Source: an uncultured Gammaproteobacteria bacterium (lineage in GTDB: Bacteria > Patescibacteriota > Microgenomatia > UBA8517). Taken from it: a stretch of DNA of 47,839 bases. Location of the stretch: positions 1 to 47,839 of the forward strand of contig CAYRUS010000003.1 in NCBI GenBank assembly GCA_964427735.1. Direction: 5' to 3'. Shown here in pieces: positions 2-16,047 of the stretch (positions are counted from its first letter, which is position 1; each line of letters begins with the position of its first letter). The translations under genes and the position numbers were made by a program. The notes beneath the pieces are model-generated. The model did no database searches. It was not told where the DNA came from and saw only the letters and a list, made by a program, of their open reading frames with translations.

Positions 2-2344
2 CCACCAACCCCGCCTCCACCAATAGGAAAATGTTCTATTGGCATTACTCCAAGCAGTACTACTATAAAAGTTGGTCAAGTACAGGAACTTACTGCGAAC
101 TCAAGCCAGGTTGATAAGGTATCTTTTGATTCCAGCAACACAAATATAATCCGTTTGAATGACAACGAAGATCCATATCCCGGTCCTTATAACACCGGAG
201 CGATAGCTGTAAATCCGGGAACAGCAAGAGTAAGAGCGACAGGTATTAGAAACGGAGTTGCTGAGTGTTCGGCAGAAGCGACTATTACAGTAACACAAGA
301 TAATGCATGCATTGTTGGAAAACCAAGCAATTTGAATTTTAACTGTTCTTATCCGGGTACACTAACAACCCTAACCTGGACAGCTGATCCTAATGCAACT
401 TTCTATTCTGTTAGGGTAGATAATCTGGCAGACGGTTGGGATGGAAGCTGCAACTCCGCAGCAGGTGATTTTTGCAGGGATGTTACCGGGACATCTATAT
501 CTTTTAATCTTGATCCCAGAGCAAGATACAAATGGTGGATACACTCAAGAAATAGCTGCAACCTTGGAATGTGGGGGGAGGCAGTGTTTGGACCTGAAAT
601 TCAATGTGGACCAAATTGTTGGGATGTTACAGGAGATACCTCAATTAATGTCGGTCAGACAGGTAACTTTAGAGCTAATTTCGAATCAAAAGATGGAGAT
701 TTGAGAGCAGAACTCTATAGAGATAGTTTTAACTCTTTAACAGGGATTAGATACTTTAGTTCATCACCTAACTATCTAACAGCTTCCTGGGCTCCAACGA
801 ATAATGATGTTGGCTATCACAATATATACTGTCGAGCTTGGAATGATGCAGTAGCAGAGTGCCGTGCAGCCGGGCAACCAGATACAGATTATGATCCACA
901 AAATGAAGGAATATATGCATGTGCAGGTCCGAGAACAAGTATGCAGGTTGCAGTAAATCCACGATCGCCTAATTTAAACACACTTTTACAAAGCTGTAAT
1001 GTAGGGAATCATCAAGTAGACTTATCGTGGACTTCTGTTGGTGCTACAAATCAATATGATTACATTATCCAAAGGTGTACAGGTGCAACATGCAACAACT
1101 TTGCAAATGTTGCAACAGTCAGCACCACTGCATACACAGACACAAGCCCCGCACTAACCGAAAACCAAACCTATAGATATAGAGTAATTGCTGAACACAG
1201 AGCATCTGGCTTAAGGTCTACTTCAAATATACAATCTGTAAGATTAAATCCATGCTCAACATTTAGCTGCAATATAACACTTGGTCCACTAGGTAACCAA
1301 CAGATGTCACCTGGTGAAATACGAAGTTTTGTTACTCAATACACAAAAACAGGACCTGGTACAGTTAGTGCAGTAGAGATAAGAAACTCTAATGCAAACG
1401 CTTTGACACCAGTTTTGAGAAGAAGCTCACCTCCTGCAAATCCTTTTGGTGCAAACTTTACAGCAACCAACAATGTAGGACAATCGGCAAAGCTTCAGGC
1501 ATTTGTAATAGATAGTAACAATATTGAGGTTTGCAAAAGTAACGAAGTAAATGTAGAAGTTGTACTTAAACCTTGGTGGCAAGTGGTAAATGGAGATGTG
1601 ATCTCTGGCAATACTATCCAGTCAAACGTCTTTACAGGTAATTTTCTTTTTACAGGAGTGGGGAACTCCAAAGGTATGCCCATCTATGGAACAGGTATTG
1701 TTCCTGGATATGATTCAGGAAGGTTATCACAAACACCACCTGCTGTGTGGAATGCTAATACAAAAACAAACTTAACTACAAACTATAATATTTTACGCTC
1801 AAGAGTTCCATCCAGTGTCTCTTGGTTGGATATAAACAATCCATCGACAAATGTATCATCACTTGCAACAAGTTGCGCAAGTACAGATTTTTGTTGGTTT
1901 AGACGCTTACAATCAGGTTCAGAAAATGGATCACTTGATATAATAAATGGTGGAAACCTAGGGAATGATCGAGTAATAGTATTTGTAAATGGTGACTTAA
2001 ACATAAACGGTAATATAACCTTTAATGAAGGTAGAGGGAACGCAATATTTATAGCAAGAGGCAACATAACTATTGCACCATCAGTTAATAGAATAGATGG
2101 GGTATACATTAGTAATGCACGATTTAGAACAGTCTCGGCAAATCCTGATGCGCAGACTCTACGTATAAACGGAATAGTCTACAGTTCAGCATCTCCTAGC
2201 CTAGGACGTGACAGACAAAGTGGTAACGCGAATCCTTCTGAAATATTTACTTTTAGACCTGATGTGATGTTTAATTTCCCTCGAGCATTAATGGAGAGAA
2301 ATATAATCAGATGGGAAGAAATTCCTCCAGACCAAGACATCTAA
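2..2344 (+). CDS. Large Cys-rich secreted surface/adhesin-like protein, 5' end cut by window edge; Ig-like (Big_2-type) and FN3-like segments plus a conserved C-terminal 'WWQ' module
   Basis: Frame 2 is open from nt 2; the TTG at 155 in the ORF track is not the real start. Upstream translation is PPTPPPPIGKCSIGITPSSTTIKVGQVQELTANSS.., which looks Ig-like. FN3-like stretch LSWTSVGATNQYDYIIQRC..YRYRVIA. Many Cys residues. The C-terminal ~255 aa from KPWWQVVNG (nt ~1568) aligns with the C-terminus of the next ORF. Confidence 0.6.
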   Translation, partial: PPTPPPPIGKCSIGITPSSTTIKVGQVQELTANSSQVDKVSFDSSNTNIIRLNDNEDPYPGPYNTGAIAVNPGTARVRATGIRNGVAECSAEATITVTQDNACIVGKPSNLNFNCSYPGTLTTLTWTADPNATFYSVRVDNLADGWDGSCNSAAGDFCRDVTGTSISFNLDPRARYKWWIHSRNSCNLGMWGEAVFGPEIQCGPNCWDVTGDTSINVGQTGNFRANFESKDGDLRAELYRDSFNSLTGIRYFSSSPNYLTASWAPTNNDVGYHNIYCRAWNDAVAECRAAGQPDTDYDPQNEGIYACAGPRTSMQVAVNPRSPNLNTLLQSCNVGNHQVDLSWTSVGATNQYDYIIQRCTGATCNNFANVATVSTTAYTDTSPALTENQTYRYRVIAEHRASGLRSTSNIQSVRLNPCSTFSCNITLGPLGNQQMSPGEIRSFVTQYTKTGPGTVSAVEIRNSNANALTPVLRRSSPPANPFGANFTATNNVGQSAKLQAFVIDSNNIEVCKSNEVNVEVVLKPWWQVVNGDVISGNTIQSNVFTGNFLFTGVGNSKGMPIYGTGIVPGYDSGRLSQTPPAVWNANTKTNLTTNYNILRSRVPSSVSWLDINNPSTNVSSLATSCASTDFCWFRRLQSGSENGSLDIINGGNLGNDRVIVFVNGDLNINGNITFNEGRGNAIFIARGNITIAPSVNRIDGVYISNARFRTVSANPDAQTLRINGIVYSSASPSLGRDRQSGNANPSEIFTFRPDVMFNFPRALMERNIIRWEEIPPDQDI

Positions 2345-2365
2345 TAGTGCTATTATTTAATTTAT

Positions 2366-4216
2366 ATGAATATTAGAGGGTTTGTGTTTTTCCTTTTTAA
2401 ACCAACTATAATGTTGGTTGTTTTTTTATCGTTCCTAGTGTTTTCTCCTTCGATTTCAGCTCAACAACCACAGAGATTAATTTATATGGTTCAAGACATT
2501 GGTGGCAGTGGATCTCACTCACGGTTTGCAACAATCGACCCGGTTACCCGAGAAGTAGCTTTTTTGGGTCCGTTTTATCCGCATTGGAATATAGAGACTC
2601 TAGATATTCACCCCACCACCGGAGTAATTTATACAATTCCTGCAGACAATGGAATAGGAACTACAGGCAGACTATATACACTGGACCCAGATACAGGGAT
2701 GCTTAATTACATTGGAAACACAGGCGAAAACGACATAGCAGCACTGGCTTTTCACCCGGATGGAACTTTGTGGGGAGTTAGAAGAAGAGACCATATTTTT
2801 ACAGTTAACCTAAACACTGCACAAATTACTAAAGTAAAAACAGGCATAGATGACTTCGAAGGAGCAGCTTGGGATATTGATGGAAAATATTTATATTTAA
2901 CAATGGAAAAGAGTTCCGCATTATACAGATACGACAAAGACACAAAAACAATATCCGTGTATGATACAAATGCATTCCCAGACGAAGTAGAAGCTCTCGA
3001 TTTTCTACCTGACAATACACTTTTAGCAGGGACGGATAGACATGCGTCTCGTCATCTTATTCGCTATGATGTGACCACAAGGTCAGTGGTAGAAGTTCTT
3101 ATCACCAATGACTCAGATCTAAATGATATAGAAGGTATTAGCTGGTGGGAAGGGCATGGTAATTTATCATTTAATGAGTGTTCAATCTCATTGTCTGCTA
3201 TATCTCCAATGGCACCAGGAACATCAAGAGATATACAGGTTACAATACATAATGGAGACATGGCGCAAATAGAGTACAAATCGTCAGATAGCAACGTCCT
3301 GTATTTTGATCCACCTCAATCAACCAACTTAACAAGCACAACCTCTCCATTCATAGTAGATCTTCATGCAGGAGTTTCAGGAAATGCACAAATTAGTGCT
3401 ACTGCTACAACAACAAGTGGAGATGTCTGTAACTCAAACACCGTAAGTGTAGAAATAATAGGGCAACCTGCATGGTGGCAAATAGTTAATGGAAACGTAT
3501 TCTCAGGAACAACAAACACATCAGGTGGAAGAATACAATCAATAGTACCAAGTGGTAGTTTTTTTATAGAAAAAACAGGTCCAAATTCAATTGGTTTACC
3601 AATATATTCATCAAATTTAATGGTTAATCCAGACAGAATATCTTCTTTTGCTTGGAACGCTGGAAGTAATATCGATCCAAAATTTGTGGTATACAGTTAT
3701 AATAGGATTTTTAGTCTTGCCTCTACAGCTACTAACTATATCAATCAGAGCGTAGGAAATGATCCTGGAGCACAGTATTTTAGCAATAGCTGTACAGGAT
3801 CAGATTTTTGTTGGTACAAAACTATTAGCAACCTTCAATTAAAGGAGGAAAGTTTGGATGAATCAAAATTAGTCGTATTTGTAAATGGAAGCCTAACAGT
3901 AAATAATAATTTATCTTTTGACGATGGAAAAGGAAATGCAATATTTGTAGCTTCCGGAGATATTATTGTAAAACCTTCTGTTACGGACTTGGAAGGGATT
4001 TATATGGCAAATGGTAGATTTATAACAGAACCTTCTACAAACCAACTAAATGTAGAGGGGATGGTATACAGTAGAGAAGCACCAAGCTTACAACGAGAAA
4101 TCCCTCCCAATTCTTTGCCTGCAGAAAAGTTTATATTCAGACCTGACATTGTGTTTAATTTACCTAGAATCTTTACGAAAAGAGAAATTGTTAGTTGGAG
4201 CGAGGTACTACCTTAA
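2366..4216 (+). CDS. Secreted surface protein: signal/anchor peptide, beta-propeller-like region, Ig-like segment, and the same C-terminal 'WWQ' module as the upstream ORF
   Basis: ATG at 2366. Hydrophobic N-terminus LVVFLSFLVFSPSISAQQ. Repeated propeller-like strands (GRLYTLDPDTG, LAFHPDGTLWGV, LYRYDKDTK, LIRYDVTTR). C-terminal module from QPAWWQIVNG (nt ~3464) is paralogous to ORF 2..2344. Confidence 0.6.
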   Translation: MNIRGFVFFLFKPTIMLVVFLSFLVFSPSISAQQPQRLIYMVQDIGGSGSHSRFATIDPVTREVAFLGPFYPHWNIETLDIHPTTGVIYTIPADNGIGTTGRLYTLDPDTGMLNYIGNTGENDIAALAFHPDGTLWGVRRRDHIFTVNLNTAQITKVKTGIDDFEGAAWDIDGKYLYLTMEKSSALYRYDKDTKTISVYDTNAFPDEVEALDFLPDNTLLAGTDRHASRHLIRYDVTTRSVVEVLITNDSDLNDIEGISWWEGHGNLSFNECSISLSAISPMAPGTSRDIQVTIHNGDMAQIEYKSSDSNVLYFDPPQSTNLTSTTSPFIVDLHAGVSGNAQISATATTTSGDVCNSNTVSVEIIGQPAWWQIVNGNVFSGTTNTSGGRIQSIVPSGSFFIEKTGPNSIGLPIYSSNLMVNPDRISSFAWNAGSNIDPKFVVYSYNRIFSLASTATNYINQSVGNDPGAQYFSNSCTGSDFCWYKTISNLQLKEESLDESKLVVFVNGSLTVNNNLSFDDGKGNAIFVASGDIIVKPSVTDLEGIYMANGRFITEPSTNQLNVEGMVYSREAPSLQREIPPNSLPAEKFIFRPDIVFNLPRIFTKREIVSWSEVLP

Positions 4217-4261: not shown

Positions 4262-4486
4262 ATGGTAAAAATTAGACTAGCAAGACACGGAAAAAGAAAT
4301 TCTCCTTTTTACAGAATAGTTGCTATAGAAGAAGCAGCTAAAAGAGGAGGAGCTCCTATTGATATACTAGGTTTTTGGTTTCCTGAAAAAGACCAAAAAG
4401 AAGTAAATAAAAAAAGGATAGATGAGTGGGTTAAAAAGGGAGCACAAGTTACTCCCGCGGTAGAAAAGCTACTTAAGACAAAATGA
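4262..4486 (+). CDS. rpsP: 30S ribosomal protein S16
   Basis: MVKIRLARHGKRNSPFYRIVAIE.. is the canonical S16 N-terminus. 74 aa. The TGA stop overlaps the next start (ATGA). Confidence 0.95.
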   Translation: MVKIRLARHGKRNSPFYRIVAIEEAAKRGGAPIDILGFWFPEKDQKEVNKKRIDEWVKKGAQVTPAVEKLLKTK

Positions 4487-4713
4487 AAGAATTACTAGAG
4501 TACATACTACAAGGAATAACAGGTTCAGATGAGATAAATGTAGAGGAAACTGAAAACGATAGTGCAGTAACTTTCACAATAAAAAGTCCAAAAGAATACA
4601 TTGGTCTAATCATAGGAAAAGAAGGTAAGACTATAAAATCTATAAGAAATATTCTAAGAATAAAAGCAACTTTAGAAGAAAAACTAGTAGACCTTGATGT
4701 CCAGGAAGTATAA
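4483..4713 (+). CDS. KH-domain RNA-binding protein (UPF0109/YlqC-like)
   Basis: IGLIIGKEGKTIKSIRNILR matches the KH GxxG core. 76 aa. Sits in the conserved position directly after rpsP. Confidence 0.85.
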   Translation: MKELLEYILQGITGSDEINVEETENDSAVTFTIKSPKEYIGLIIGKEGKTIKSIRNILRIKATLEEKLVDLDVQEV

Positions 4714-4768: not shown

Positions 4769-5692
4769 TTAATTCTTCACAATATCCTGTGGACTAACCA
4801 AAGCAGCATCAAAAATTGAAAGTGGTTCAGGGTACGTCTGAAATGCTTGAACAGACCTTACTGCACGATCACCTTCACCACCAGCCTGACCGACTGCCCT
4901 AGCAACCTTCAGTTGATGAGGTAGATCATTTGCACCTGATCCTTCAATACCTATATATGTAGTTTCACCGGCTGATAAATCAAGATATAGAGGTCTTACT
5001 CTAACCATTATATTGTTGCCACTCGACCCGGGTAAAGAAATCCCTGATACTGAATTTTTATATATTCTTTCAACACCAAAACTATCTAGCTTAGGATATG
5101 TCCCTATACTTGCTAGAGCGAATTTATTGGTGGACCTTCTCGATGCTACAGGATCATAAACATATCTCTGCACACGTACTCCACTAAAATTTCCACTCAA
5201 ATAATTTGTTGAGGGGTTTGAGTTAGTATCATAATAAATAGTAACTTCTACAGCAGGATCCTGCCCTTCACCCCAATATAAATTAATTGAGCCACCTGTA
5301 TAGCAAAGAAGAGGCGGGGTACAATCTAGTGAATCATCGTCATTATGAGAAACAAGCCAAAAAGTTGCTGACTCACCAGAAGATAGCTTTTTAGGATAGT
5401 GATATCTTCTACCACCACCAGTTGACTCTACTGTAGCGCTAAAAGTCGAATTATTATCCAAAGGCACATTGTTTATGCTACCAACACTACTTTCCAACAG
5501 GATTCTTTCTATACCAGCCTCAGCAGCCGAAAAAGCCCTTGATGCTTCTTCTTCAGTTGTAGAGATATCTATATCTGTGATAGAAGAGGAGACTATTTGC
5601 ATTACCATAACTAAAACAACAGACATTGCAAGTAAAACAAGCAAGAGCGCAATCCCTTGCTCGTTTTGTTGTTTCAAATAACGTTTAGTCAT
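4769..5692 (-). CDS. PilX-N-domain pilus assembly/tip-associated protein
   Basis: N-terminus MTKRYLKQQNEQGIALLLVLLAMSVVLVMVMQIV.. resembles the PilX N-terminal motif (polar residue, G, then a hydrophobic helix). Last gene of the pilus operon. Confidence 0.6.
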   Translation of the reverse strand: MTKRYLKQQNEQGIALLLVLLAMSVVLVMVMQIVSSSITDIDISTTEEEASRAFSAAEAGIERILLESSVGSINNVPLDNNSTFSATVESTGGGRRYHYPKKLSSGESATFWLVSHNDDDSLDCTPPLLCYTGGSINLYWGEGQDPAVEVTIYYDTNSNPSTNYLSGNFSGVRVQRYVYDPVASRRSTNKFALASIGTYPKLDSFGVERIYKNSVSGISLPGSSGNNIMVRVRPLYLDLSAGETTYIGIEGSGANDLPHQLKVARAVGQAGGEGDRAVRSVQAFQTYPEPLSIFDAALVSPQDIVKN

Positions 5693-5732: not shown

Positions 5733-6410
5733 CTATAGTTCAAAAGGATTCGGGCGATTACTATCTCCAGTCGGATCCAAGTCAGTAAAATCAGGAACCT
5801 CCAACTCTGAAATTCTTGTTAATATGCCCGTTTCTTCCTGGTTAATTTTGTTTATTGGAGTAGTTATGTCTGGTAAAGTCTCTGGCAATTTTGCATATAC
5901 ACTACTTAATTCAATTTGAGCTCTACCTGATTGATTATTATTATCAAACTCAGCTTCTTTTAAAATCATTAAAGGAGCTGCTCTTCTAATACTCTCAAAG
6001 AAATTAAAAGAGTCTGTAACATTACCCTCAAACTCAACATCAATAGTAATATCAGACACCTCGCTTTCTATTTCACCGGATTTTACATCCACATCAGTCA
6101 AAAATAAGGTGTTATTTATTGCCAATCTCCTTAGTTGTGATATTACCTGTACTACTGGAGGTTCGCTAGGCACACCTAAAATAGAAGAGACTGCATGTTG
6201 TTCAACAAATTGCTGCATCCGTTTAAGCTCAGTGTCTTTTTCAGCAAGAATATTTTCTATTCTTTTTTCGTTTTCCAAGAGTTGTCTTTGTTCAACTATC
6301 TTGTTGTATCCAAATGTATATGTCGTATAAATAAGAATTGCTAGAACTACAATCATTAACAGTGGAAACAATATCACAGAAACATTTGTTGATAATTTAA
6401 TATCTTTCAT
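5733..6410 (-). CDS. PilO-like pilus alignment protein (single TM plus coiled coil)
   Basis: N-terminal TM VSVILFPLLMIVVLAILIYTTY, then the coiled coil QRQLLENEKRIENILAEKDTELKRMQQF. Lies directly after the pilN-like gene. Assignment rests on architecture and synteny only. Confidence 0.5.
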   Translation of the reverse strand: MKDIKLSTNVSVILFPLLMIVVLAILIYTTYTFGYNKIVEQRQLLENEKRIENILAEKDTELKRMQQFVEQHAVSSILGVPSEPPVVQVISQLRRLAINNTLFLTDVDVKSGEIESEVSDITIDVEFEGNVTDSFNFFESIRRAAPLMILKEAEFDNNNQSGRAQIELSSVYAKLPETLPDITTPINKINQEETGILTRISELEVPDFTDLDPTGDSNRPNPFEL

Positions 6411-6411: not shown

Positions 6412-6939
6412 TTACTTAAGAACTTCTATATCCATATCATACCCACTTCCACTTCTAAAACTAAAAGAATTTACTTTTACGTTTGGATACTCTGTGTTTG
6501 TTCTTAACCTTTCAAGAACCCTCCCTAAACTGTCTATACTTGTAGCATTCAGCTGCATTTCTATCGATTCTTGATTAATTTCTGCTCTTACAATATTTGC
6601 ATCCTGGATAACTTGATCGTAGAAATTTCTATAAAAATCAAAATCCTTCTCTGAATTTTGGCTATTTAGGGCTTGAACTCCTTTACTTGCTCTGTCTTTA
6701 ACAAGTACATATTGCTGTTCTGTCGCTTGCATAGATTGTATGGATTGTTTTAAGGAATTTTGGCTGCTTCTAACTCTAGAAAGTTCAATTCTATTTGCTA
6801 TAAAAATCGCAGTAATTATCAAAGCTGCTGCAATAAACAAAACTAGAGCACCAATAGCTACTGTTTTCAAACCTTTAGATACTTTAAGGTAGCTGTTGTC
6901 TGGTGCTAATTCCTTAGATAATAAGTTAACAGTGTCCAT
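6412..6939 (-). CDS. pilN: PilN-like fimbrial assembly protein
   Basis: N-terminal VNLLSKEL (PilN-type xNLLP motif), a single TM (AIGALVLFIAAALIITAIFI), then coiled coil. Located between pilM and the pilO-like gene. Confidence 0.65.
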   Translation of the reverse strand: MDTVNLLSKELAPDNSYLKVSKGLKTVAIGALVLFIAAALIITAIFIANRIELSRVRSSQNSLKQSIQSMQATEQQYVLVKDRASKGVQALNSQNSEKDFDFYRNFYDQVIQDANIVRAEINQESIEMQLNATSIDSLGRVLERLRTNTEYPNVKVNSFSFRSGSGYDMDIEVLK

Positions 6940-6942: not shown

Positions 6943-7953
6943 TTACCTCATAGCTAACCCTGCCGCTATTGAATAGAGCGGAGCATATGCTGCCAAACTT
7001 TGCCTTATGTTCGAATCCATCTCTACTTTTGAAAACGGATCCCCAACTACAACTTCACGGTTTAGCAACTCACTTAACTGAGCTATAATCCCCACCAATC
7101 CTGAAGAACCTCCTGAAAGAATAACCGATTGTGGCTGTTCACCTTTATCCTCAGATTGATAAAAATGAACTGCCTTTTTGATCTCTTCTGCAACCATCTT
7201 TATAACAGGGAGTAATGCGTTACTTACCTTTCCTTCTAATTTATCGGTAGCTAGTCCATAAGTCTTTTTATATTGCTCAGCTTGAATTTCATCCATTCCC
7301 AAAGATTGGGCTACAGCTCGTGTTAAAGCATTACCGGCAGTTGGAATTGATCTGGTAAAAACCATTTTTCCGTTTCGAGTAATAGCCATATCTGTTGAAG
7401 AAGATCCAAAATCAACAACCATATGCGTACCACTAGAAGGGGCAAGACTTCTACACAACGCCAAAAGTTCTGTTTCAACTGTAGTTACATTTAAACCAGC
7501 AGCTTGGATTGCCTGAACATAACCATGAACTACTTCTTTCGGGGCTGCAAGTAAAAGCACTCTAGTAACAGGTGGTGTGGCTGTCTCATCTCTTTCTATT
7601 ATTTGATGATCTACAACAGCATCTGCAATTGGAATTGGTATGTATTGCTCGGCCTCCCATTTAACAGCAGAGGCGATTTCCTGATCAGAAAGCAAAGGAA
7701 ACTTAATAATTCTTGTATATACATGTTCTTCAGACAAAGAAATTGTTATATCGTTAGAGGAAATCTTAGCCTCTTTGTGAAGTTTTCGCATTATTTCAGC
7801 AATGGCAACAAGTCCTGCATCATCTGTAATTTTGTCTAAAGAAGGTCCTGTATATCCGATAACTCCGGAACCACGCAAAGTATAAGAATCACGTTTTTTA
7901 TCTAACTCTACGATTTTGATGGACTTAGTTCCTATATCTATTCCTACACCCAT
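6943..7953 (-). CDS. pilM: Type IV pilus assembly ATPase-fold protein PilM
   Basis: MGVGIDIGTKSIKIVELDKK.. is an actin/FtsA-like fold start. ..DFGSSSTDMAI.. and ..ILSGGSSGL.. are phosphate-binding motifs. 336 aa. Confidence 0.85.
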   Translation of the reverse strand: MGVGIDIGTKSIKIVELDKKRDSYTLRGSGVIGYTGPSLDKITDDAGLVAIAEIMRKLHKEAKISSNDITISLSEEHVYTRIIKFPLLSDQEIASAVKWEAEQYIPIPIADAVVDHQIIERDETATPPVTRVLLLAAPKEVVHGYVQAIQAAGLNVTTVETELLALCRSLAPSSGTHMVVDFGSSSTDMAITRNGKMVFTRSIPTAGNALTRAVAQSLGMDEIQAEQYKKTYGLATDKLEGKVSNALLPVIKMVAEEIKKAVHFYQSEDKGEQPQSVILSGGSSGLVGIIAQLSELLNREVVVGDPFSKVEMDSNIRQSLAAYAPLYSIAAGLAMR

Positions 7954-8045: not shown

Positions 8046-8531
8046 TTATTGTTCACTATAATTTCTAGGTTTTATTTCTGTTTGAATATTAATTTCACCT
8101 ACCTCAATAGAGCTACTACTTCCAGCTTCAGCGTTTATGTTTATGGTAATTGTTTCTGGGTTGGTTGAGGTAGGGGAACAGGTAAATATGTTGCAATTTT
8201 TAATATTAACAATATCAGATGTCAAAGGGTTTAAACGCCATCTAATAGCTCCACCATCACACTCTATGGTTTCGGCAGTAGACCGAGAAGGTGGCATATA
8301 AACAACTCTTGCATTGCTAGGACAACTTATACTCGTAGCATTTCTGAGTTGTCGCTCCATAATTCCCACAGCATTGTCGACATCTTGCCTAACTTTTATC
8401 GTGTTTTCTGATCTTTTAACATTTCTGACAGATAGTAAAATTCCTTGTGCTACCAATACACTAAGCACAGAAAATATTGCTATAACTACAAGCATTTCAA
8501 TTAAACTATATCCTTTTAATCTGTTTTTCAT
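8046..8531 (-). CDS. Minor pilin/pseudopilin with prepilin-type N-terminal cleavage/methylation motif
   Basis: MKNRLKG|YSLIEMLVVIAIFSVLSVLVAQ. Start moved to the ATG at 8531, 1 nt after the upstream stop; the ORF-track start at 8561 is an extension. Confidence 0.8.
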   Translation of the reverse strand: MKNRLKGYSLIEMLVVIAIFSVLSVLVAQGILLSVRNVKRSENTIKVRQDVDNAVGIMERQLRNATSISCPSNARVVYMPPSRSTAETIECDGGAIRWRLNPLTSDIVNIKNCNIFTCSPTSTNPETITININAEAGSSSSIEVGEINIQTEIKPRNYSEQ

Positions 8532-8532
8532 A

Positions 8533-8991
8533 TTACTGAGCTCTTGGATCAGATAAATCAACCTGATTTATGACCTCTCTGTCAAGAGAACCTTCTTTCC
8601 ATCGAGTAGTTACTTTTACACTAACAAACTCAGGGTCTGATGTATCAAAAGTCGCAAATCTGATAAAATTAGTGCTAGTAATAGTGTCACAATTCACAGG
8701 GTTTGTTACTTTTTTAGCCCACAGGCTAGAAAGGTCTTGAAGGCATAAATTCAATGCTCCAACAGTATTAACATTATTTTTAAAAGTATCATAATTTACA
8801 TCTCTCTCTGCTCTAAAAGTTTCAATGGCTTCTTGCGAATATCTACTGGCAACGGTTCTGTTTCTAGCAGAGGTCGAATTCCTAACTGAAGTTATAGATA
8901 GACTAACTAAAGCTGTCATTATCAAGGCCATAACACCTATCGCAAAAACTACTTCAAGCAATGATTGTCCACTGTTTTTATTTATTATCAT
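8533..8991 (-). CDS. Minor pilin/pseudopilin (atypical G|QSLLE motif)
   Basis: MIINKNSG|QSLLEVVFAIGVMALIMTAL keeps Gly-1 and Glu+5 with the hydrophobic helix. ATGA overlap with the upstream gene. Confidence 0.7.
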   Translation of the reverse strand: MIINKNSGQSLLEVVFAIGVMALIMTALVSLSITSVRNSTSARNRTVASRYSQEAIETFRAERDVNYDTFKNNVNTVGALNLCLQDLSSLWAKKVTNPVNCDTITSTNFIRFATFDTSDPEFVSVKVTTRWKEGSLDREVINQVDLSDPRAQ

Positions 8992-9551
8992 TCTATTCTA
9001 CCATTACTATATATCCTAATTGTTTCAACGGGTAGACCTCGATATTCTAAGATGATTTCCTTAGATGATAGTCCTGCAGGAGGAGGGAACTGGTTTAAAT
9101 TACTGCTTGGTATATGAACACCACCCCCAACGGGTAAAAACTTCAGGTTATCAATACCGGTTGTACTTATTCTAACTCCGCTAGGCATACTCTGGTTTGG
9201 AACATAATCTTCATATGTGTAAGGAGCAGCGTCGCCACATATTGCCTCATAAAAGTATTGGTTTGATTTTATACTAAATCTAACACCATTAAATTTCACA
9301 CAGGGTGTAGATGGATCAGAAGGTCGCTTACCAGAAGCAGCTAATTCCTGCGCGTGACGTAGAGCAGTCGTTACTTGAATTTTTGCCTGGTTTAATCTTT
9401 TCTTTCTTTCAAAATTACGATAGTTAACAGTACCAATACTGAATAACACAGACATTATAGCTATTGAGATTAGAAGCTCAACCGTTGTAAAACCACTAAT
9501 TAATAGAGTAGTTTTTCTCCAGTATGAAGATTTTTTTTTATAGTTAAACAT
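8988..9551 (-). CDS. Minor pilin/pseudopilin
   Basis: ..TLLISG|FTTVELLISIAIMSVLFSIG class III signal peptide. 187 aa. Confidence 0.75.
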   Translation of the reverse strand: MFNYKKKSSYWRKTTLLISGFTTVELLISIAIMSVLFSIGTVNYRNFERKKRLNQAKIQVTTALRHAQELAASGKRPSDPSTPCVKFNGVRFSIKSNQYFYEAICGDAAPYTYEDYVPNQSMPSGVRISTTGIDNLKFLPVGGGVHIPSSNLNQFPPPAGLSSKEIILEYRGLPVETIRIYSNGRIE

Positions 9552-9580
9552 ATAAAAGATTCCATGATCATTTTAAAAAG

Positions 9581-9997
9581 TTATGGATTAGTAACACAAT
9601 AGTTACATGAACCAAGCGGACTACAACTTAGCGTGACAGTACAATTGTTTGGAGGATTGTTTTCCAGAAATGCTCCGAGGATATATTTGTAACATTTACC
9701 TCCTCCATCACAGGTCGCAGGATCTGCTCTGTAAGTATAAGAACCACCAGATGGATCATTTGGAAGCTTATTAATATAGTTTGGAGTTAAACTGCTATAT
9801 GCACTGTTATTCGGGTAATACCCATTATCAGACTTAAATAATTCAAGCGCTGATCTAATTGATTCCAGATCAGATTTTCTCTTTGCGTCTCGTGTTTGCA
9901 CTCTAGCATCCTGAAAATTTGAACCAATTAAAGCAAGCAATATTCCAATAATTGCAATCACAACTAAGAGCTCAACAAGTGTAAAACCTTTTCTCAT
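9581..9997 (-). CDS. Type IV pilin / GspG-like pseudopilin paralog
   Basis: MRKG|FTLVELLVVIAIIGILLALIG, followed by ARVQTRDAKRKSDLESIRSALELF (the shared RD.xRKSDL motif). Cys-rich C-terminus. Start set to the ATG at 9997. Confidence 0.85.
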   Translation of the reverse strand: MRKGFTLVELLVVIAIIGILLALIGSNFQDARVQTRDAKRKSDLESIRSALELFKSDNGYYPNNSAYSSLTPNYINKLPNDPSGGSYTYRADPATCDGGGKCYKYILGAFLENNPPNNCTVTLSCSPLGSCNYCVTNP

Positions 9998-10001
9998 AAA
10001 C

Positions 10002-10481
10002 TTATAATGGACAAAATGTACTAGGAACAGTATTTGTTGTCCCTGACTTACCATTCGAACAAGCTACCCAATATGTTCCATCTGATGTATCTTCTAGATT
10101 TGCCCATAGAAAATATTCCAACGCTGATGGATTACCACCAGAACCCGATCCACCAACGGTCCTGTAATAATAAATATTTGTTTTTAAAGGATCAGTAGGG
10201 CAACCACTTAAAGATAAATAATTACATAAAACAATACTAGCGTTTACCTGACCACTAGAAGCATTACTTCGTGGATAGTAACCATTATTATTATTTGCGT
10301 AAACCTCGATTGCATTTTGATAAAACTTAAGATCAGACTTCCTCTGTGTGTCCCTTGCAGTACTAAAAGTATCACCAAATCCAAATATAGCTAGCGCAAC
10401 AAGAATTCCCACGATAGAAATCACTATGAGTAATTCTATTAATGTAAATCCTTTTGTATATTTAAAATTACTTTTATTCAT
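10002..10481 (-). CDS. Type IV pilin paralog
   Basis: MNKSNFKYTKG|FTLIELLIVISIVGILVALAI, then ARDTQRKSDLKFY. Ends ..CPL like the neighbouring gene. Start set to the ATG at 10481. Confidence 0.85.
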   Translation of the reverse strand: MNKSNFKYTKGFTLIELLIVISIVGILVALAIFGFGDTFSTARDTQRKSDLKFYQNAIEVYANNNNGYYPRSNASSGQVNASIVLCNYLSLSGCPTDPLKTNIYYYRTVGGSGSGGNPSALEYFLWANLEDTSDGTYWVACSNGKSGTTNTVPSTFCPL

Positions 10482-10486
10482 ATAAA

Positions 10487-10966
10487 TTAAAGCGGACATA
10501 CACTGCTTGTTGGTGCTGAAGAAGACTCTCCAGAATTACCACCAGAACAAACTATCCAATATGTTGGTGTTGTTGATACTTCTAATTCAGCCCATAAAAC
10601 AAATTCCGTTGCCTGCGGCGCGCCATCTGAAGCAGTACCATTTGATCTGTACTTATAGGTTCTAACTATTGATGGAGGGTTATTTAGCGGATCTTCCGGA
10701 CATGCTGTTGTACCAATAGCAGAACATATAGTAGGTGAGACATCTCGAGTAGTTATATATTGTGGGTAAAACCCACTATTTTTAGATGCAAATTGACTAA
10801 GAGATGTTCTGTACTGAGCTAAATCAGATTTTCTTTGAGTGTCTCTGGCTCTTTCTCTTATGCTGCTATAGTTTGCAACCAATATAACGGCTAATATTCC
10901 TATTATGGAAATCACAACTAAGAGCTCTATGAGTGTAAAACCTTTATATTTATGCACCATATTCAT
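10487..10966 (-). CDS. Type IV pilin paralog (close duplicate of 10002..10481)
   Basis: ..HKYKG|FTLIELLVVISIIGILAVILV, then ARDTQRKSDLAQY. C-terminus YWIVCSGGNSG..VCPL parallels YWVACSNGKSG..FCPL in the neighbour. Confidence 0.85.
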   Translation of the reverse strand: MNMVHKYKGFTLIELLVVISIIGILAVILVANYSSIRERARDTQRKSDLAQYRTSLSQFASKNSGFYPQYITTRDVSPTICSAIGTTACPEDPLNNPPSIVRTYKYRSNGTASDGAPQATEFVLWAELEVSTTPTYWIVCSGGNSGESSSAPTSSVCPL

Positions 10967-10976
10967 AATAGCACTT

Positions 10977-11513
10977 TTAATAAACCTCTGTTGGTGTTGT
11001 ATTCGAACTAGTTATAGCAAAGTTGCAACTTGCTGGACCCTCACCACAATCCAAACTAAATGACTGATAAAAAGGATCATTATCATTCTCTAAAATTGAA
11101 TATAGTTGAAATTTTTGAAAGGTCGAATCTGTTCTGTAAAAATAGTTAAATCCACGCGGGTCGACTGGAAGCTCACTAAAATATACTTTTCCTTCTGTGT
11201 CTTGGAATGGGTCGTTGGGATCACCCCAATTACAAGCACTGCCTAAACCTGTACTTACATTGAAATCACAACCCATTATTTGTCCGGATCCATTGCCAGA
11301 GGGATATCTGTTATGGTCATTATGAAATATCTCGAGAGCATTGGCTACTTGTCTTAGATCAGATTTTCTTTGAGCGTCCCTTGCTTTAATCTGAGAACTA
11401 GCAAATGTGGATGCCGCAATAGTTGCTAGTATTCCAATTATTGCAATTACAACAAGAAGTTCAATTAGAGTAAATCCAGCTTCTTTCAGCTTATAGATTT
11501 TATGAGCAGGCAT
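10977..11513 (-). CDS. Type IV pilin paralog
   Basis: ..KLKEAG|FTLIELLVVIAIIGILATIAAS, then ARDAQRKSDLRQVANALEIF. Confidence 0.85.
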   Translation of the reverse strand: MPAHKIYKLKEAGFTLIELLVVIAIIGILATIAASTFASSQIKARDAQRKSDLRQVANALEIFHNDHNRYPSGNGSGQIMGCDFNVSTGLGSACNWGDPNDPFQDTEGKVYFSELPVDPRGFNYFYRTDSTFQKFQLYSILENDNDPFYQSFSLDCGEGPASCNFAITSSNTTPTEVY

Positions 11514-11538
11514 ATATTACATTTTGATATGCTTAAAG

Positions 11539-12123
11539 TTATTTTTCAATAGGTATATTGCTAATTCTATAATCACACAAGTCAAGTCCACAATCTACAC
11601 CTAAAGTTTCTATATTTTTACCTGTTTCTTCAAGAGTATTTGTCTCCATGTCAGCAAATAGTTGATAATTATTACCATCAGAAATGTAATAGTAATTTCT
11701 TCCTGACTCTGATAAGGGATCATTAGGAATTACATCCAAAAGTTTTGGACTAGAACTATTTTCTAAATCAGATAGTAAGGAGTCTTTCCCCCAAAAACAA
11801 CCTCGAGCTTTATTTTCTAATTCTTGGTAAGGGTTTTCAAGATGTGACAAATTTGCGATACTCAAACTCGAATCATTTCCTGACTCATCTACTACACACG
11901 CCTTTATCATTCCATTTTCAGAGGGGGGATAGGTATTATAGTTTTTATTAAATTTAATTAACGCTTCTTCTACAGCACTTAAGTGGTCTCTCCTGTCAAT
12001 ATCACGTTCTCTTTTAAATGAGAAAAGAATATTTATATAAGTTGTGAGAAATAAAAACAGTAAAATACTTAATATTATTAGGAATTCGTTTTTCTTAAAA
12101 AAGAGCATAAGTAAATTATACAA
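11539..12123 (-). CDS. Pilin-like protein with degenerate (probably uncleavable) N-terminus
   Basis: FFKKNEFLIILSILLFLFL aligns with KG|FTLIELL but has Asn for Gly-1 and Ile for Glu+5. It keeps the pilin-body motif RERDIDRRDHLSAVEEALIKF. Confidence 0.6.
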   Translation of the reverse strand: MYNLLMLFFKKNEFLIILSILLFLFLTTYINILFSFKRERDIDRRDHLSAVEEALIKFNKNYNTYPPSENGMIKACVVDESGNDSSLSIANLSHLENPYQELENKARGCFWGKDSLLSDLENSSSPKLLDVIPNDPLSESGRNYYYISDGNNYQLFADMETNTLEETGKNIETLGVDCGLDLCDYRISNIPIEK

Positions 12124-12128
12124 TACCC

Positions 12129-12572
12129 TTAAGGGCGTGGAGCACTAGGGCTGCGAACATAAAAATTATAGTTGTTACCGGGACCACATCCGGTAGGACA
12201 GCCACGTTCTTCAATTAATGGGTTTTTGTCGTTAGTGAATTTAGTATAAATACGATACCAGTCAGGGCAGGAAGGATTTGCGGGATTTACCTCATATACA
12301 TAACTTGCATCAGTTGAAGGGTCACAAGGTATTTTGTTTATATAAGGGCGCCATGCATCACCAGGGTTACAAGCAGGCATTGATGTGGGGTAGCAACTAG
12401 TATCTGTTACCATATCTTCTAACGTCTTTTGGATTGTATTCATATCAGAAACTTTACGACCGTCTATGCCTTTGTTTATTTGGGTTGTGTAATTAGTTAT
12501 CACCAAAGTTGCAAGTATGCCAACAATAGCAACAACAATAAGAATTTCAATTAATGTCAGTCCTTTATTCAT
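12129..12572 (-). CDS. Type IV pilin paralog
   Basis: MNKG|LTLIEILIVVAIVGILATLVI. Cys-rich C-terminal globular part. Immediately downstream of pilD. Confidence 0.85.
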   Translation of the reverse strand: MNKGLTLIEILIVVAIVGILATLVITNYTTQINKGIDGRKVSDMNTIQKTLEDMVTDTSCYPTSMPACNPGDAWRPYINKIPCDPSTDASYVYEVNPANPSCPDWYRIYTKFTNDKNPLIEERGCPTGCGPGNNYNFYVRSPSAPRP

Positions 12573-12574
12573 TT

Positions 12575-13393
12575 CTACAAGAAAAATAAACCTTTAACAT
12601 ATTTACTAAAAACGATTATTATAAATAATGATATAACTAAAAATGGTCCAAAAGCTATTTTGCTTTTAAATGAGCTTTTACCCGTTAAAATAAGTATTAT
12701 TCCAACAATCCCCCCAGTCAAGAAGCTCAAATAAAGCCAATAAATAAAAAACGGCCAGCCCAAAAAAGTACCAACAGGAATAGCAAACTTAACATCTCCC
12801 AACCCCATACCTGCACCTTTCGTAGCTAAAGCAATCATCAGCAAAACAAAAGCTGCTATAAAACCTGTCAATAGCCTTAAGTATAAGTCAGGGAAGGGAA
12901 GTAGCATAATTGGAAGATACGTCAAAATAAGAAAAGCAAATGTAAGTTCATCAGGAATTATTTGATGCTCCCAATCTATAATTAATATTGCAAAGAGAAT
13001 TAAAAAAATAGCAAAATAATAAGGTAGAGAAACAATACCTAAATAATTTTGATATTCACATACTATATGACCTTGCGAGGAAACTCCTTGCAAGGTATTC
13101 GCACAATAATTGTAAAGATGAAATATTACAACAAAACCTAAACCGCAAGCTAGTTCAATTAACGGATATCTGATTGAAATAGCTTTTTTGCAATACCTAC
13201 ATTTTCCTTTTAGAAAACCATAGGAAATCAAGGGAATGTTATCATACCATTGGATAGTTTTTTTACAATTAGGACAAATAGATCGTCCTTTGGAAATTGG
13301 TTTGTTTTCCACTAATCTCCAAGTCAGAGAAGTCAAAAAAGATCCAAATATAAGTCCAAATACAAAAATAAACAAATATAATATTAAATTCAT
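12575..13393 (-). CDS. pilD: Prepilin peptidase / N-methyltransferase (A24 family)
   Basis: N-terminal TM, then the Zn-binding CPNCKKTIQWYDNIPLISYGFLKGKCRYCKK. Polytopic membrane body with ..GMGLGDVKF.. (catalytic Asp context). Confidence 0.9.
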   Translation of the reverse strand: MNLILYLFIFVFGLIFGSFLTSLTWRLVENKPISKGRSICPNCKKTIQWYDNIPLISYGFLKGKCRYCKKAISIRYPLIELACGLGFVVIFHLYNYCANTLQGVSSQGHIVCEYQNYLGIVSLPYYFAIFLILFAILIIDWEHQIIPDELTFAFLILTYLPIMLLPFPDLYLRLLTGFIAAFVLLMIALATKGAGMGLGDVKFAIPVGTFLGWPFFIYWLYLSFLTGGIVGIILILTGKSSFKSKIAFGPFLVISLFIIIVFSKYVKGLFFL

Positions 13394-13468
13394 CTATTTA
13401 ATCATGAAGAAATCTTTATGTATATGCAAGGATTAATATATTTTATTCTTTACTAAATATACATTTAG

Positions 13469-13981: not shown

Positions 13982-14048
13982 ACTCTAATTATATTATACG
14001 GTATATTCCTGATGTGTGTAATTCAACTGGAAGATTAAATCTATTGTC

Positions 14049-14076
14049 AAAAAAATAATCTCTATATAAGAGATTA
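14049..14076 (-). terminator. Rho-independent terminator after the major-pilin candidate
   Basis: On the minus strand, TAATCTCT-tatat-AGAGATTA forms a perfect 8-bp stem followed by TTTTTTT. It lies 26 nt downstream of the stop of 14102..14653. Confidence 0.6.
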
Positions 14077-14101
14077 CATATTTATCTAAATATATTTTAC
14101 T

Positions 14102-16039: not shown

Positions 16040-16047
16040 ATACGGAG

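Follow-up and report, generated by a model that had tools for sequence, protein, structure and literature searches.

PilY1 and PilC (PF05567) are tip-associated adhesins of type IVa pili, and the fimU-pilVWXY1E operon regularly includes PilY1. The competence pilus of Thermus thermophilus has a tip pilin, ComZ (PDB 6qvi), with a GspK-like fold; it binds DNA, a location at the pilus tip has been proposed for it, and its solenoid in turn is most similar to a DUF3494 protein (PMC6561018). The tapirins of Caldicellulosiruptor are beta-helix binders encoded beside a type IV pilus (T4P) locus (bioRxiv 10.1101/359786). In the Saccharibacteria TM7x, host binding requires PilX2, a candidate adhesin that is pilin-like and has a beta-propeller together with a non-canonical signal (PMC12206443). 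The window (the whole stretch of DNA analysed, 47,839 nt) begins with two adjacent genes, ORF A and ORF B, whose products are best explained as members of a large and uncharacterised family of surface proteins that ultra-small CPR bacteria of the Microgenomates type export through Sec.

ORF A, ORF B and their shared C-terminal unit

The two genes contain the following features.

2..2344, + strand: ORF A, open frame from nt 2; secreted multidomain protein of at least 780 aa (protein end at aa 780)
320..586, + strand: fn3 domain in the ORF A head (aa 107-195; Pfam PF00041, 27.7 bits against a cutoff of 25, E-value: 3.2e-6)
1268..1561, + strand: Ig-like (Big_2/LigB-like) segment of ORF A (aa 423-520), start of the shared unit, inside the BLASTP segment with ORF B
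1562..2332, + strand: 'WWQ' module of ORF A, predicted solenoid (aa 521-777; family HMM E-value: 1.7e-68; alignment A1)
2366..4216, + strand: ORF B, 616 aa; signal peptide, beta-propeller-like head, Ig-like segment and WWQ module in that order
2366..2461, + strand: Sec-type signal peptide of ORF B (aa 1-32; ...SISA/QQ; MNIRGFVFFLFKPTIMLVVFLSFLVFSPSISA/QQ), read off the sequence
2483..3178, + strand: beta-propeller-like head of ORF B (aa ~40-271; Pfam DUF6923, 29.6 bits against a cutoff of 27)
3179..3463, + strand: Ig-like segment of ORF B (aa 272-366), aligning to ORF A aa 423-520
3464..4213, + strand: 'WWQ' module of ORF B, predicted solenoid (aa 367-616, extreme C-terminus; family HMM E-value: 1.6e-68)

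ORF A is partial because its 5' end lies beyond the contig. Its head contains 16 cysteines, and Pfam also gives a weak Big_2 match in this protein. The fn3 and Cys-rich region is held in common with the head of another family member, P0020 (46% identity over 229 aa). ORF B is its own cluster representative (P0001). Its head also matches several beta-propeller families of Pfam below threshold and has no relative among the other 149 representatives. Both ORFs are present as a preliminary description had them, with differing N-terminal parts (fn3/Cys-rich in A, DUF6923/propeller in B).

Comparison of ORF A aa 423-776 with ORF B aa 272-616 by BLASTP gives one strong segment in which 124 of 372 positions are identical (33%; E-value: 4e-53). 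This similarity is far above chance and confirms the common tail of the pair. The ~250-aa modules on their own share 40% identity and 92 invariant columns (alignment A1). Although this ~250-aa part is shared as first described, its start was placed too late: homology begins ~100 aa earlier (nt ~1268 in ORF A and ~3179 in ORF B) and takes in the Ig-like segment. What is conserved is an Ig-like domain together with the predicted solenoid, rather than the solenoid alone. The motifs originally quoted are all found (WWQ(V/I)VNG, C..DFCW, VVFVNG...GNAIF...PSV...RF.T and F.FRPD..FN.PR...W.E..P). In the solenoid block, the 27 identical residues counted by eye are correct, but the aligned positions number 53 and not 55. 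The Cys pair of C..DFCW is particular to the two window copies; the family consensus there is GY.WY.

Module family and predicted fold

The module matches no Pfam or NCBIfam model at threshold. A profile built from the two copies finds 2,532 representative proteins at E-values of 1e-3 or lower (946 at 1e-10 or lower); in 148 of the best 150 of these relatives, no more than 5 residues follow the module. As suggested before, it is a real and unnamed domain family, strictly C-terminal in position. The named members are hypothetical proteins of Woesebacteria/Microgenomates. Among the best 150, 115 of the 137 relatives starting with Met have an N-terminal signal-like hydrophobic stretch. A C-terminal hydrophobic stretch is absent from A, B and all 150, and neither A nor B matches a sorting-signal model of Pfam or NCBIfam, in agreement with the missing C-terminal anchor noted earlier. 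A regular expression for the prepilin-type motif matches one of 177 sequences, at residue 54.

The heads had been described as interchangeable. They are varied (127 heads form 48 similarity clusters) but interchangeable only in part, as a single Cys-rich cluster accounts for 68. Median Cys content is 6.5% in the heads and 0% in the modules. Head domains in the family include fn3, Big_2, Hint, PA14 and TSP1. Big_2 is found in 8 of 72 members, and the region preceding the module in the family profile shows a weak match to LigB/Big domains. The plan that best explains the family is a signal peptide, a variable head, an Ig-like (Big_2-type) domain and a ~250-aa beta-solenoid, which opens with WWQ and has W-x-E-V-A-P as its closing motif, right at the C-terminus.

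Among sequence families, only DUF7305 (PF23981) gives a signal on the module; it is an uncharacterised Pfam family on which no publications were found in the literature searched. The family consensus scores 25.6 bits (E-value: 1.3e-5; gathering cutoff: 27 bits). The match pairs residues 84-170 of the module with positions 21-112 of the 185 in the profile, and no more than roughly one third of the module and one half of the profile are covered. DUF7305 is matched at E-values of 1e-3 or lower by 3 of 72 members, and by neither window copy at 1 or lower.

The module is predicted to be a beta-solenoid (AlphaFold2 model of the ORF B module as a monomer, 131-sequence alignment; pLDDT 86.5, pTM 0.86). 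The top Foldseek match in the PDB is ComZ 6qvi (probability 0.99; E-value: 0.022; 156 aligned columns; TM-score 0.30), and the next group consists of DUF3494 ice-binding proteins (E-values: 0.024-0.04; TM-scores 0.38-0.44). The top BFVD match is also DUF3494, and the tapirin C-terminal domain 6n2b is a distant match (E-value: 3.9; probability 0.01). Because the leading fold matches are weak (E-values: 0.02-0.04; TM-scores 0.30-0.44), homology to ComZ is not established by them. Structure prediction agrees with the solenoid-like character proposed from the sequence, and the best structural match is the solenoid of a pilus-tip protein.

Module genes and type IV pilus genes

Downstream of ORF B, the window contains the following genes.

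4262..4486, + strand: rpsP (ribosomal protein S16; Pfam Ribosomal_S16, E-value: 3.8e-18), 45 nt downstream of ORF B
4483..4713, + strand: KhpA-type KH-domain gene (Pfam KH_KhpA-B, E-value: 3.3e-14)
4769..5692, - strand: PilX/GspK-like minor pilin that lacks Glu5; it closes the T4P operon and converges on the ORF A/B pair
5733..6410, - strand: PilO-like (weak PilO match)
6412..6939, - strand: PilN-like (PilM-N-O order kept in related loci)
6943..7953, - strand: PilM (PilM_2, E-value: 9e-51)
8046..14653, - strand: about 11 pilin or pilin-like genes (N_methyl and T2SSG matches)
12575..13393, - strand: PilD, prepilin peptidase, among the pilin genes (A24_N_bact and Peptidase_A24 matches)
14834..16039, - strand: PilC (T2SSF, E-value: 5.5e-63)
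16048..17112, - strand: PilT-like ATPase (T2SSE match)
17144..18907, - strand: PilB-like ATPase (T2SSE match)

The T2SSE E-value for the ATPase region of 14834..18907 (PilC, PilT-like and PilB-like) is 2.6e-43, and the orthologues of the PilC/ATPase genes in locus L039 (63-72% identity) carry T2SSF, T2SSE and MshEN. The PilX-like protein has 1,108 homologues, some of them named PilX or PulG. Its orthologues match PilX_N (best E-value: 8.3e-5) and its N-terminus resembles GspK (E-value: 0.0017; SGQALLLVLL...RAFSAAEAGIE in alignment A5). The stretch from ORF B to rpsP shows no terminator-like site. The pair does lie beside the T4P operon, across rpsP and the KH gene, but it is not part of that operon: the pair, rpsP and the KH gene are on the + strand and the convergent T4P genes on the - strand.

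Module genes are often found inside or beside T4P operons. Twenty-four module loci were found independently (17 genome loci by a context-blind DNA motif and 7 contigs by protein identity), and 11 of them have T4P genes within 8-10 kb of the module gene (8 of 17 and 3 of 7, respectively, in the examined DNA). Compared to a background of 3-10%, the binomial p-values are 3e-11 to 7e-6, which overstate independence because the sampled loci are related by phylogeny. The preliminary description had staked its proposal on enrichment near pilus genes, and this is what the 24 loci display. In L044, L059 and L104, the module gene is directly upstream of PilX-PilM-PilN-PilO on the same strand, with gaps of ~14-57 nt; L059 and L104 have it lodged inside the array, with the pilin genes on one side and PilX on the other. 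In L017, L022, L025, L043 and L047, the module gene converges on the end of the pilin operon, and it adjoins rpsP/KH in the window and L048. These several arrangements argue against simple frozen synteny. The pilus link goes with the module and not with one head, as the T4P-adjacent members have different heads (propeller, fn3/Cys-rich, Hint or unannotated).

Viewed from the pilus side, a module gene is present at 7 of 80 PilX-like loci (4 of 38 among those with at least 12 kb of flank), and none of the 7 is more than 3.1 kb from PilX (p~0.003 when compared to a uniform spread). The other 73 loci have no nearby module gene, so the module would be an accessory of the pilus and not one of its core components. 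In about half of the cases, the examined DNA around a module gene contains no T4P gene (e.g. L041, L042, L045 and L046). The T4P-rpsP-KH-rnc-nusB-recG block is conserved in the clade, and inherited synteny could account for part of the module/T4P adjacency. Profile comparison shows no similarity between the module and the PilX-like protein, and no PilX-solenoid fusion was found among the best 120 of the 1,108 PilX-like homologues, all of which are 273-350 aa.

Proposed role and comparison with known systems

The common C-terminal unit and its frequent placement at T4P operons make it a good candidate for a mount by which adhesin heads of varying type are held on the pilus or on the surface of the cell. 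Gene context and fold suggest an accessory pilus-associated display or docking module. The favoured reading, put forward tentatively (probability of roughly 0.45), is that the Ig-solenoid unit forms the constant end of the protein, associates with the pilus and docks on the T4P; from the same two lines of evidence we infer that protein and pilus are physically associated and assign docking to the unit and binding to the head. The unit would hold the protein on the pilus, most plausibly at a tip complex capped by the adjacently encoded Glu5-less PilX/GspK-like minor pilin, although the pilus base or envelope could also be the attachment site. The variable head (beta-propeller in B, fn3 and Cys-rich in A), with the Ig domain as its spacer, would contact the host cell or substrate.

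C-terminal choline-binding and SLH-type modules bind the envelope non-covalently, and the Ig-solenoid unit might likewise bind the cell wall or S-layer and display the heads on the cell body, with the T4P vicinity due to co-regulation or inherited synteny. Such an anchor would fit a conserved, strictly C-terminal domain combined with varied heads, a Sec signal and no covalent-anchor motif, as well as the roughly half of the members that lie away from T4P genes, the majority of PilX loci without a module gene and the syntenic rpsP/KH/T4P block of the clade. It is unlikely, however, given that T4P enrichment extends across at least three arrangements (including the same-strand position 14-57 nt upstream of PilX and the position inside the pilin-to-PilX array), that the module matches no known wall-binding module and that its best fold match is a pilus-tip protein.

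Another possibility, which appears quite unlikely, is that the solenoid itself is a conserved binder of a common ligand (e.g. DNA or a glycan), the N-terminal parts being accessory or attaching. The fold matches to DNA-binding ComZ, to DUF3494 proteins and, distantly, to tapirin 6n2b are consistent with this, as are the T4P-linked tapirins and the much stronger conservation of the module than of the heads. However, the heads are made of typical binding or adhesion domains (propeller, fn3, PA14, TSP1, Cys-rich) and are N-terminal to the Ig spacer, an arrangement that is usual for displayed heads. The proteins have no other means of attachment (neither a TM segment nor a prepilin-type N-terminal signal), and the most conserved motifs lie at the module ends (WWQ and W.EVAP), which would suit a structural cap better than a flat binding face.

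It is improbable that these are simply abundant, variable secreted proteins with no functional link to the pilus, brought near T4P genes by shared ancestry or a variable operon-flanking region. The relatedness of the sampled loci, the 73 of 80 PilX loci without a module gene and the mobile-element context of one member (L042) would agree with this, but proximity is kept through changes of strand, order and the T4P sub-cluster touched, module genes are concentrated within 3.1 kb of PilX, and those of L059 and L104 are inside the operon.

T2SS substrates can be encoded next to their machine, which would favour a reading of these proteins as pilus cargo, but to our knowledge they have no common linear or domain signal, which counts against it. 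That A, B and the Tat-signal proteins often encoded upstream are exoproteins pushed through the wall or S-layer by the type IV filament in a T2SS-like manner, with the C-terminal unit as recognition element, is highly improbable: Sec-signal module genes and Tat-signal genes do recur together beside or inside T4P operons, but a secretin and outer membrane are not expected in these bacteria (10.1101/335083), and the retraction-type ATPase and many pilins of the operon suggest a true pilus.

If the Ig-solenoid unit is a pilus-associated mount, the protein that carries it would resemble PilY1 in function; in PilY1, a constant C-terminal domain is seated on minor pilins. Like PilY1/PilC, the module proteins are non-pilins with a Sec signal, a conserved C-terminal domain and a variable N-terminal domain, can be encoded beside pilX/minor-pilin genes (here L044, L059 and L104) and presumably place an adhesive head at the pilus. 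They differ in that sequence and fold are unrelated (Ig plus predicted beta-solenoid here, beta-propeller in PilY1; no Pfam match to PF05567 in A or B), the module occurs at only a minority of T4P loci and a priming role is not indicated. ComZ resembles the module proteins in its triangular DUF3494-like solenoid and its gene in a pilin locus. Its solenoid (~380 aa, compared to ~250 aa here) is inserted in a GspK-like pilin domain, whereas the module proteins have a Sec signal and no pilin domain; solenoid and GspK-like pilin are here 'split' into two genes. In both ComZ and the tapirins, the solenoid is the ligand-binding and not the docking part, which counts against the docking reading. The tapirins, in which the beta-helix binds cellulose, also differ in their distant fold match and in having no large repertoire of swapped heads. 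DUF3494/IBP-1-fold proteins (6bg8, 6eio, FfIBP) are similarly secreted, with a right-handed solenoid and an accessory helix, but their terminal motifs differ, the module has no Pfam match to DUF3494 even at E-values up to 10, and ice binding is not expected for it. PilX2 of TM7x is likewise a CPR pilus-associated adhesin candidate with a propeller, as in the ORF B head; it is a pilin 'lollipop' with the propeller fused to it, whereas A and B, which have the Ig-solenoid unit, are proteins distinct from the PilX-like pilin. The role proposed for A and B would represent a further version of the theme of PilY1, ComZ and the tapirins.

Two proteins with different heads and a common tail

Two open reading frames, ORF A and ORF B, are located on the same strand, 21 nt apart, within the first 4.2 kb of the window.

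2-2344, + strand: ORF A, at least 780 aa
2366-4216, + strand: ORF B, 616 aa, with a typical Sec signal peptide at its start

ORF A is partial because its frame is open to the contig end. The preliminary description had given these proteins unrelated N-terminal parts (heads) and a shared C-terminal tail, and both statements are borne out. In Pfam, the ORF A head has an fn3 domain (E-value: 3e-6), a weak Big_2 match and 16 cysteines, whereas the ORF B head has a DUF6923/beta-propeller region and no cysteine. The fn3 and Cys-rich region of ORF A is also found in another family member, P0020 (46% identity over 229 aa). The sole strong BLASTP segment pairs residues 423-776 of ORF A with 272-616 of ORF B (33% identity, 372 columns, E-value: 4e-53); all remaining segments have E-values of ~1 or higher. 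The shared region begins ~100 aa earlier than had been described and includes an Ig-like segment. The ~250-aa tails by themselves (the WWQ module) share 40% identity and have 92 invariant columns; their alignment contains all of the motifs quoted previously. The 27 identities counted by eye in the central block are correct, but the aligned residues number 53 rather than 55. The central C..DFCW motif (window 1985-2010 and 3800-3830) is indeed in both window copies, but the family has GY.WY at this position, and the Cys pair is conserved only between these two copies. The window proteins are each other's closest relatives (43% identity) and are old duplicates.

No Pfam or NCBIfam model matches the module at threshold. 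A word-indexed search with a single module and a look-up of contigs by the exact ORF B sequence both found nothing, tblastn of the family consensus against plasmids gave no match, and comparison of the module alone and of the family profile with PDB sequences left the module unmatched, with only weak Ig-domain matches upstream of it. A profile built from the two window copies was scored against 1.84 billion representative proteins and identified 2,532 proteins at E<=1e-3 (946 at E<=1e-10); the family comprises more than 2,500 clusters at 50% identity. Its abridged consensus is as follows.

Start: WWQV.DGDV ... G.GG.PG.P.Y.G ... W.AN ... KVILFV.GDL.I
Middle: G.GFF..IV.GNI.V.P.V ... LEG.Y..DG.F.TG ... 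QL.VRGSV
End: L.RDL ... PAE.FEY.PD ... W.EVAP-COOH

The profile region directly upstream of WWQ is also conserved and shows a weak match to Ig domains of the LigB/Big type, and 8/72 members contain Big_2; the constant unit therefore consists of an Ig domain and a solenoid. Among the best 150 relatives, the module ends no more than five residues from the protein C-terminus in 148, the N-terminal parts range from almost none to 885 aa, and a hydrophobic, signal-like stretch is found at the N-terminus of 115 of the 137 that start with Met. A prepilin-type motif (loose regex) was found in one of 177 sequences, at residue 54. The claim that the proteins have no C-terminal TM segment, LPXTG or other known anchor holds in Pfam and NCBIfam, and none of the 150 best relatives has a C-terminal hydrophobic stretch. 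We infer that the family comprises modular adhesins that are associated with the pilus, are not pilins and share a new constant domain. That this domain, so consistently placed at the C-terminus, is instead a general envelope anchor is a doubtful alternative to docking on the pilus.

All named members are annotated as hypothetical proteins of Candidatus Woesebacteria or Patescibacteria. The module-bearing genome loci (L-numbers, which also denote related metagenome loci) are labelled Woesebacteria, Microgenomates, Chisholmbacteria or Patescibacteria, with a few MAGs labelled Gammaproteobacteria. L002, L027, L034 and L037 are module-bearing GTDB MAGs titled 'uncultured Gammaproteobacteria', a label at odds with their content. 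These labels look doubtful because the PilM of L034 is 56% identical to that of the window, and module-bearing contigs with ill-fitting taxon labels are probably mislabelled MAGs. L035 ('uncultured Chloroflexia'), a high-GC contig (58%), has a module that stops short at profile position 232, which may reflect a genuine Chloroflexi copy, a pseudogene or an error in binning. L042 (1-16896, module gene 10001-11443) encodes a phage-type integrase, two Replic_Relax proteins, a TrwB-type coupling protein and a PD-(D/E)XK nuclease, with a faint Piwi match (possible pAgo). This mobile-element-like context hints that module genes are able to travel horizontally.

Predicted fold of the module and diversity of the heads

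The AlphaFold2 model of the ORF B module, based on a 131-sequence alignment, is confident (pLDDT 86.5, pTM 0.86). The N-terminal WWQ strand is followed by loops and a short helix (residues 82-90) and then by short strands (119-227) whose modelled arrangement is typical of a beta-solenoid. In Foldseek searches of the PDB, the top match is ComZ of Thermus thermophilus (6qvi; probability 0.99, E-value: 0.022, 156 columns, TM 0.30, rmsd 7.6). The next are DUF3494 ice-binding proteins, including 6bg8 (E-value: 0.024, TM 0.44), 6eio and 4nuh; E-values for 6bg8 and 6eio are 0.024-0.04 and TM scores 0.38-0.44. The IBP-1 fold of these proteins is a right-handed triangular solenoid flanked by a helix, ComZ has a triangular beta-solenoid of the same type, and the helix in the model is only a short one. 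DUF3494 is again the top match among viral models (BFVD). Bactofilin, pectate lyases, tailspikes and tapirin are far weaker matches than ComZ and DUF3494, and both an enzyme reading (pectate-lyase-like beta-helix) and a bactofilin reading were rejected (Foldseek probability <=0.09). The modelled fold is likely an ice-binding protein/ComZ-like solenoid. The solenoid of ComZ is closest to the DUF3494 protein FfIBP and is inserted in a GspK-like pilin fold, and ComZ has been proposed as competence pilus cap and DNA binder (PMC6561018). That the solenoid of the present family is likewise the ligand-binding part, as in ComZ and the tapirins, is unlikely. Tapirin 6n2b is a very poor structural match (E-value: 3.9, probability 0.01, TM 0.15). 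In the docking reading, ligand specificity would instead reside in the heads.

At the sequence level, the sole signal on the module is a match of the family consensus to DUF7305 (PF23981) below threshold (25.6 bits against a cutoff of 27, E-value: 1.3e-5, module residues 84-170). DUF7305 matches 3/72 full-length members at E<=1e-3 (best E-value: 1.8e-5), scores at most 18.9 bits against short members scanned singly, and does not match the window copies. These sequence scores suggest a distant relationship only. A literature search for DUF7305/PF23981 found nothing.

To compare the heads, the module and ~100 aa of Ig segment were removed and the remainder clustered by single linkage. The 127 heads form 48 clusters, of which the largest is Cys-rich (68 heads) and the second has nine; the remainder are mostly singletons, including the propeller head of ORF B. 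Median Cys content is 6.5% in heads and 0% in modules. The proposal that the heads are interchangeable is partly supported by clear domain shuffling on a constant tail, tempered by the dominance of one head type. Pfam domains in members are Big_2, fn3, PA14, TSP1 and Hint/PT-HINT. The last, an autoprocessing domain, is found in 8/72 members (~11%) at aa ~80-240, where the signal peptide and ~50 aa of Cys-rich sequence precede it and the Ig-solenoid tail lies far downstream; it is absent from ORF A and ORF B.

Hint-bearing members: P0026, P0087, P0158, P0168, P0170
Loci of Hint-bearing members: L043 5880-7814; L039 3553-5802; L046 1375-4044; L044 3069-6368

This position suggests that the proteins cleave themselves or release a small peptide from the N-terminus. 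A polymorphic-toxin reading, prompted by the PT-HINT matches, was rejected because Hint is near the N-terminus and the C-terminus is conserved rather than a variable toxin tip.

Proximity to type IV pilus genes

The window pair is followed by rpsP and a KH-domain gene and then by the type IV pilus (T4P) operon. As described previously, these two genes separate the pair from the operon; the pair is nevertheless co-oriented with rpsP and KH, convergent with the minus-strand operon and outside it.

4769-5692, - strand: PilX/GspK-like minor pilin without Glu5, last gene of the operon (N-terminus SGQALLLVLL..., conserved RAFSAAEAGIE motif in alignment A5 of PilX-like proteins)
Elsewhere in the operon: PilO-, PilN- and PilM-type genes; ~11 pilin genes and PilD; PilC and two ATPases
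4262-21657: T4P/rpsP/KH block, also in L044, L047, L048, L049, L059, L103, L104 and L125

The N-terminus of the PilX-like protein weakly resembles GspK, and it looks like a cap or tip minor pilin. It has 1,108 homologues, of which the best 120 are all ~273-350 aa; among these 120 there is no PilX-solenoid (Rosetta-stone) fusion that would support docking. The module as a diverged pilin or PilX domain was rejected, as profile-profile comparison with the PilX-like protein gave a probability of 0.3%.

Module genes elsewhere were located by scanning GTDB species genomes with a context-blind degenerate DNA motif for WWQ[VI]x[DN]G[DN]V. Of 38 loci, 17 (<=8 kb each) contain the module and the others are chance matches in other phyla. 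T4P genes are present in 8/17 (L003, L009, L017, L022, L023, L025, L033 and L034). Among seven contigs found by protein identity, T4P genes lie within 10 kb in three (L039, L043 and L044) and are absent from this distance in four (L041, L042, L045 and L046). The homologues are therefore enriched near T4P loci, the check that the preliminary description had proposed: the combined 11/24 against a generous 3-10% background gives a binomial p of 3e-11 to 7e-6, a figure inflated by shared ancestry. In the reverse test, which took PilX-like genes as its starting point, 2/4 places have a module gene no more than 10 kb away, as do only 7/80 PilX loci in metagenomes (4/38 with at least 12 kb of flank). 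Wherever it occurs there, the module gene is at most 3.1 kb from PilX (p~0.003), and in 6/7 cases it is upstream. The low count (7/80) indicates that the family is an accessory of some T4P loci rather than part of their core, unless its genes mostly reside at other genomic positions.

The arrangement of the genes varies.

Same strand, module directly upstream of PilX-PilM-PilN-PilO: L044 (14-nt gap), L059 and L104 (~50 nt)
Convergent with the pilin operon end: L017, L022, L025, L043, L047
Divergent from PilX: L023, L033
3.9 kb away: L009
Adjoining rpsP/KH: window, L048

L059 and L104 have a single array of pilins, one or two unknown proteins, module, PilX, PilM, PilN and PilO. Side by side with these arrangements, a conserved block is observed in which the T4P genes have rpsP, the KH gene, rnc, nusB and recG on one side; on the opposite side, in the window and L039, are holB-like and gyrB genes. 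Because of this T4P-rpsP-KH synteny, all arguments from gene neighbourhood call for caution in this clade. That the proximity is mere synteny, with no functional link to pili, is nonetheless improbable: T4P proximity persists while gene arrangement varies. The association follows the tail, because T4P-adjacent members carry different heads. That the proteins are T2SS-like cargo of the pilus machine is very improbable.

Other genes also recur beside the module. A protein with a Tat-type signal (S/T-RR-x-F-L-K), often ~500 aa, adjoins the module gene in most of the loci listed here, and in several it is directly upstream on the same strand.

L033 3085-4482; L044 2073-2996; L045 5049-6158; L047 8191-9762 (-)
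L048 15944-17533 (-); L052 7102-8670 (-); L059 4573-5730 and 5743-6714

Apart from a small cluster (L023, L027, L033 and L125), no homology could be detected among these neighbours, and in Pfam the signal alone was matched. They thus recur beside the module with no single detectable family as a second conserved partner. Tandem paralogues (L039 2-1567 and 1617-2747; 69% identical over ~250 aa, no Pfam match) are located directly upstream of the module gene in L039 and L040.

Proposed mode of action and comparison with known systems

CPR/Patescibacteria apparently have a lifestyle of attachment to other microbes, and a central role in locating and retaining the host and in DNA uptake is ascribed to their T4P. 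Outside Saccharibacteria, we know of no molecules identified as giving CPR pili their specificity. The present family, which is unannotated and combines varied heads, a constant tail and a statistically clear T4P link, provides concrete candidate specificity factors in Microgenomates, and a new domain definition would annotate thousands of 'hypothetical proteins'.

The family and its genomic context are solid, and from them we infer the following mechanism. The proteins would be exported by Sec and would display disulfide-rich or propeller heads, with the Ig domain as a spacer and the constant solenoid as the attached end. Attachment would most plausibly be to the tip complex of the pilus, with the Glu5-less PilX/GspK-like pilin as its cap. 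More specifically, the Microgenomates tip may be modular and exchangeable (probability about 0.25): a Sec-exported Ig-solenoid adaptor would sit on the cap and carry swappable heads (propeller, fn3/Cys-rich or Hint-processed peptides), specificity would depend on the member expressed, and the window pair would be two alternative tips. By analogy, such an adaptor could be the trans-encoded equivalent of the solenoid inserted in ComZ, which may achieve the same outcome in a single polypeptide.

Two related descriptions exist for CPR bacteria. Saccharibacteria have fused pilin-adhesins, including PilX2 with a propeller (PMC12206443), and CPR-enriched non-cytoplasmic hypothetical families have been described in general (10.1101/335083). 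The papers found on CPR pili do not describe the present family.

The family lacks the propeller of PilY1, the pilin domain of ComZ, an HMM match to DUF3494, a DUF7305 score at the cutoff, and the defining features of tapirins, pilins and known C-terminal anchors. The DUF3494 HMM (PF11999) matches neither the modules nor the family consensus at E<=10, and the module does not share the C-terminal beta-helix of tapirins by the 6n2b comparison. Type IV pilins have a class III signal peptide (G|F-T-L-x-E) and an N_methyl motif, whereas ORF A and ORF B have no N_methyl match and are negative in the motif scan. LPXTG, TM tail, T9SS CTD, PEP-CTERM, SLH and choline-binding signals were all unmatched in Pfam and NCBIfam. 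ComZ-type tip pilins bind DNA and the partner minor pilin PilA2. ComZ has a GspK-like pilin domain and an N-terminal hydrophobic helix in the same polypeptide, whereas the N-termini of the family are Sec signal peptides. PilY1 is thought to be a Sec-exported non-pilin with a constant C-terminal domain on the minor pilins and a variable N-terminal domain. PilY1/PilC has the PF05567 propeller at its C-terminus, whereas ORF A, ORF B and the modules have no PF05567 match at E<=1 and a predicted solenoid in its place. Like PilY1, the family consists of Sec-exported non-pilins (with the one prepilin-motif match in 177) whose genes immediately precede the PilX-like gene in L044, L059 and L104, a placement seen in a minority of loci. 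If docking is true, the family would represent a second way, unrelated by homology, of doing what PilY1 does, and its mode of working would be most like that of PilY1 or ComZ.
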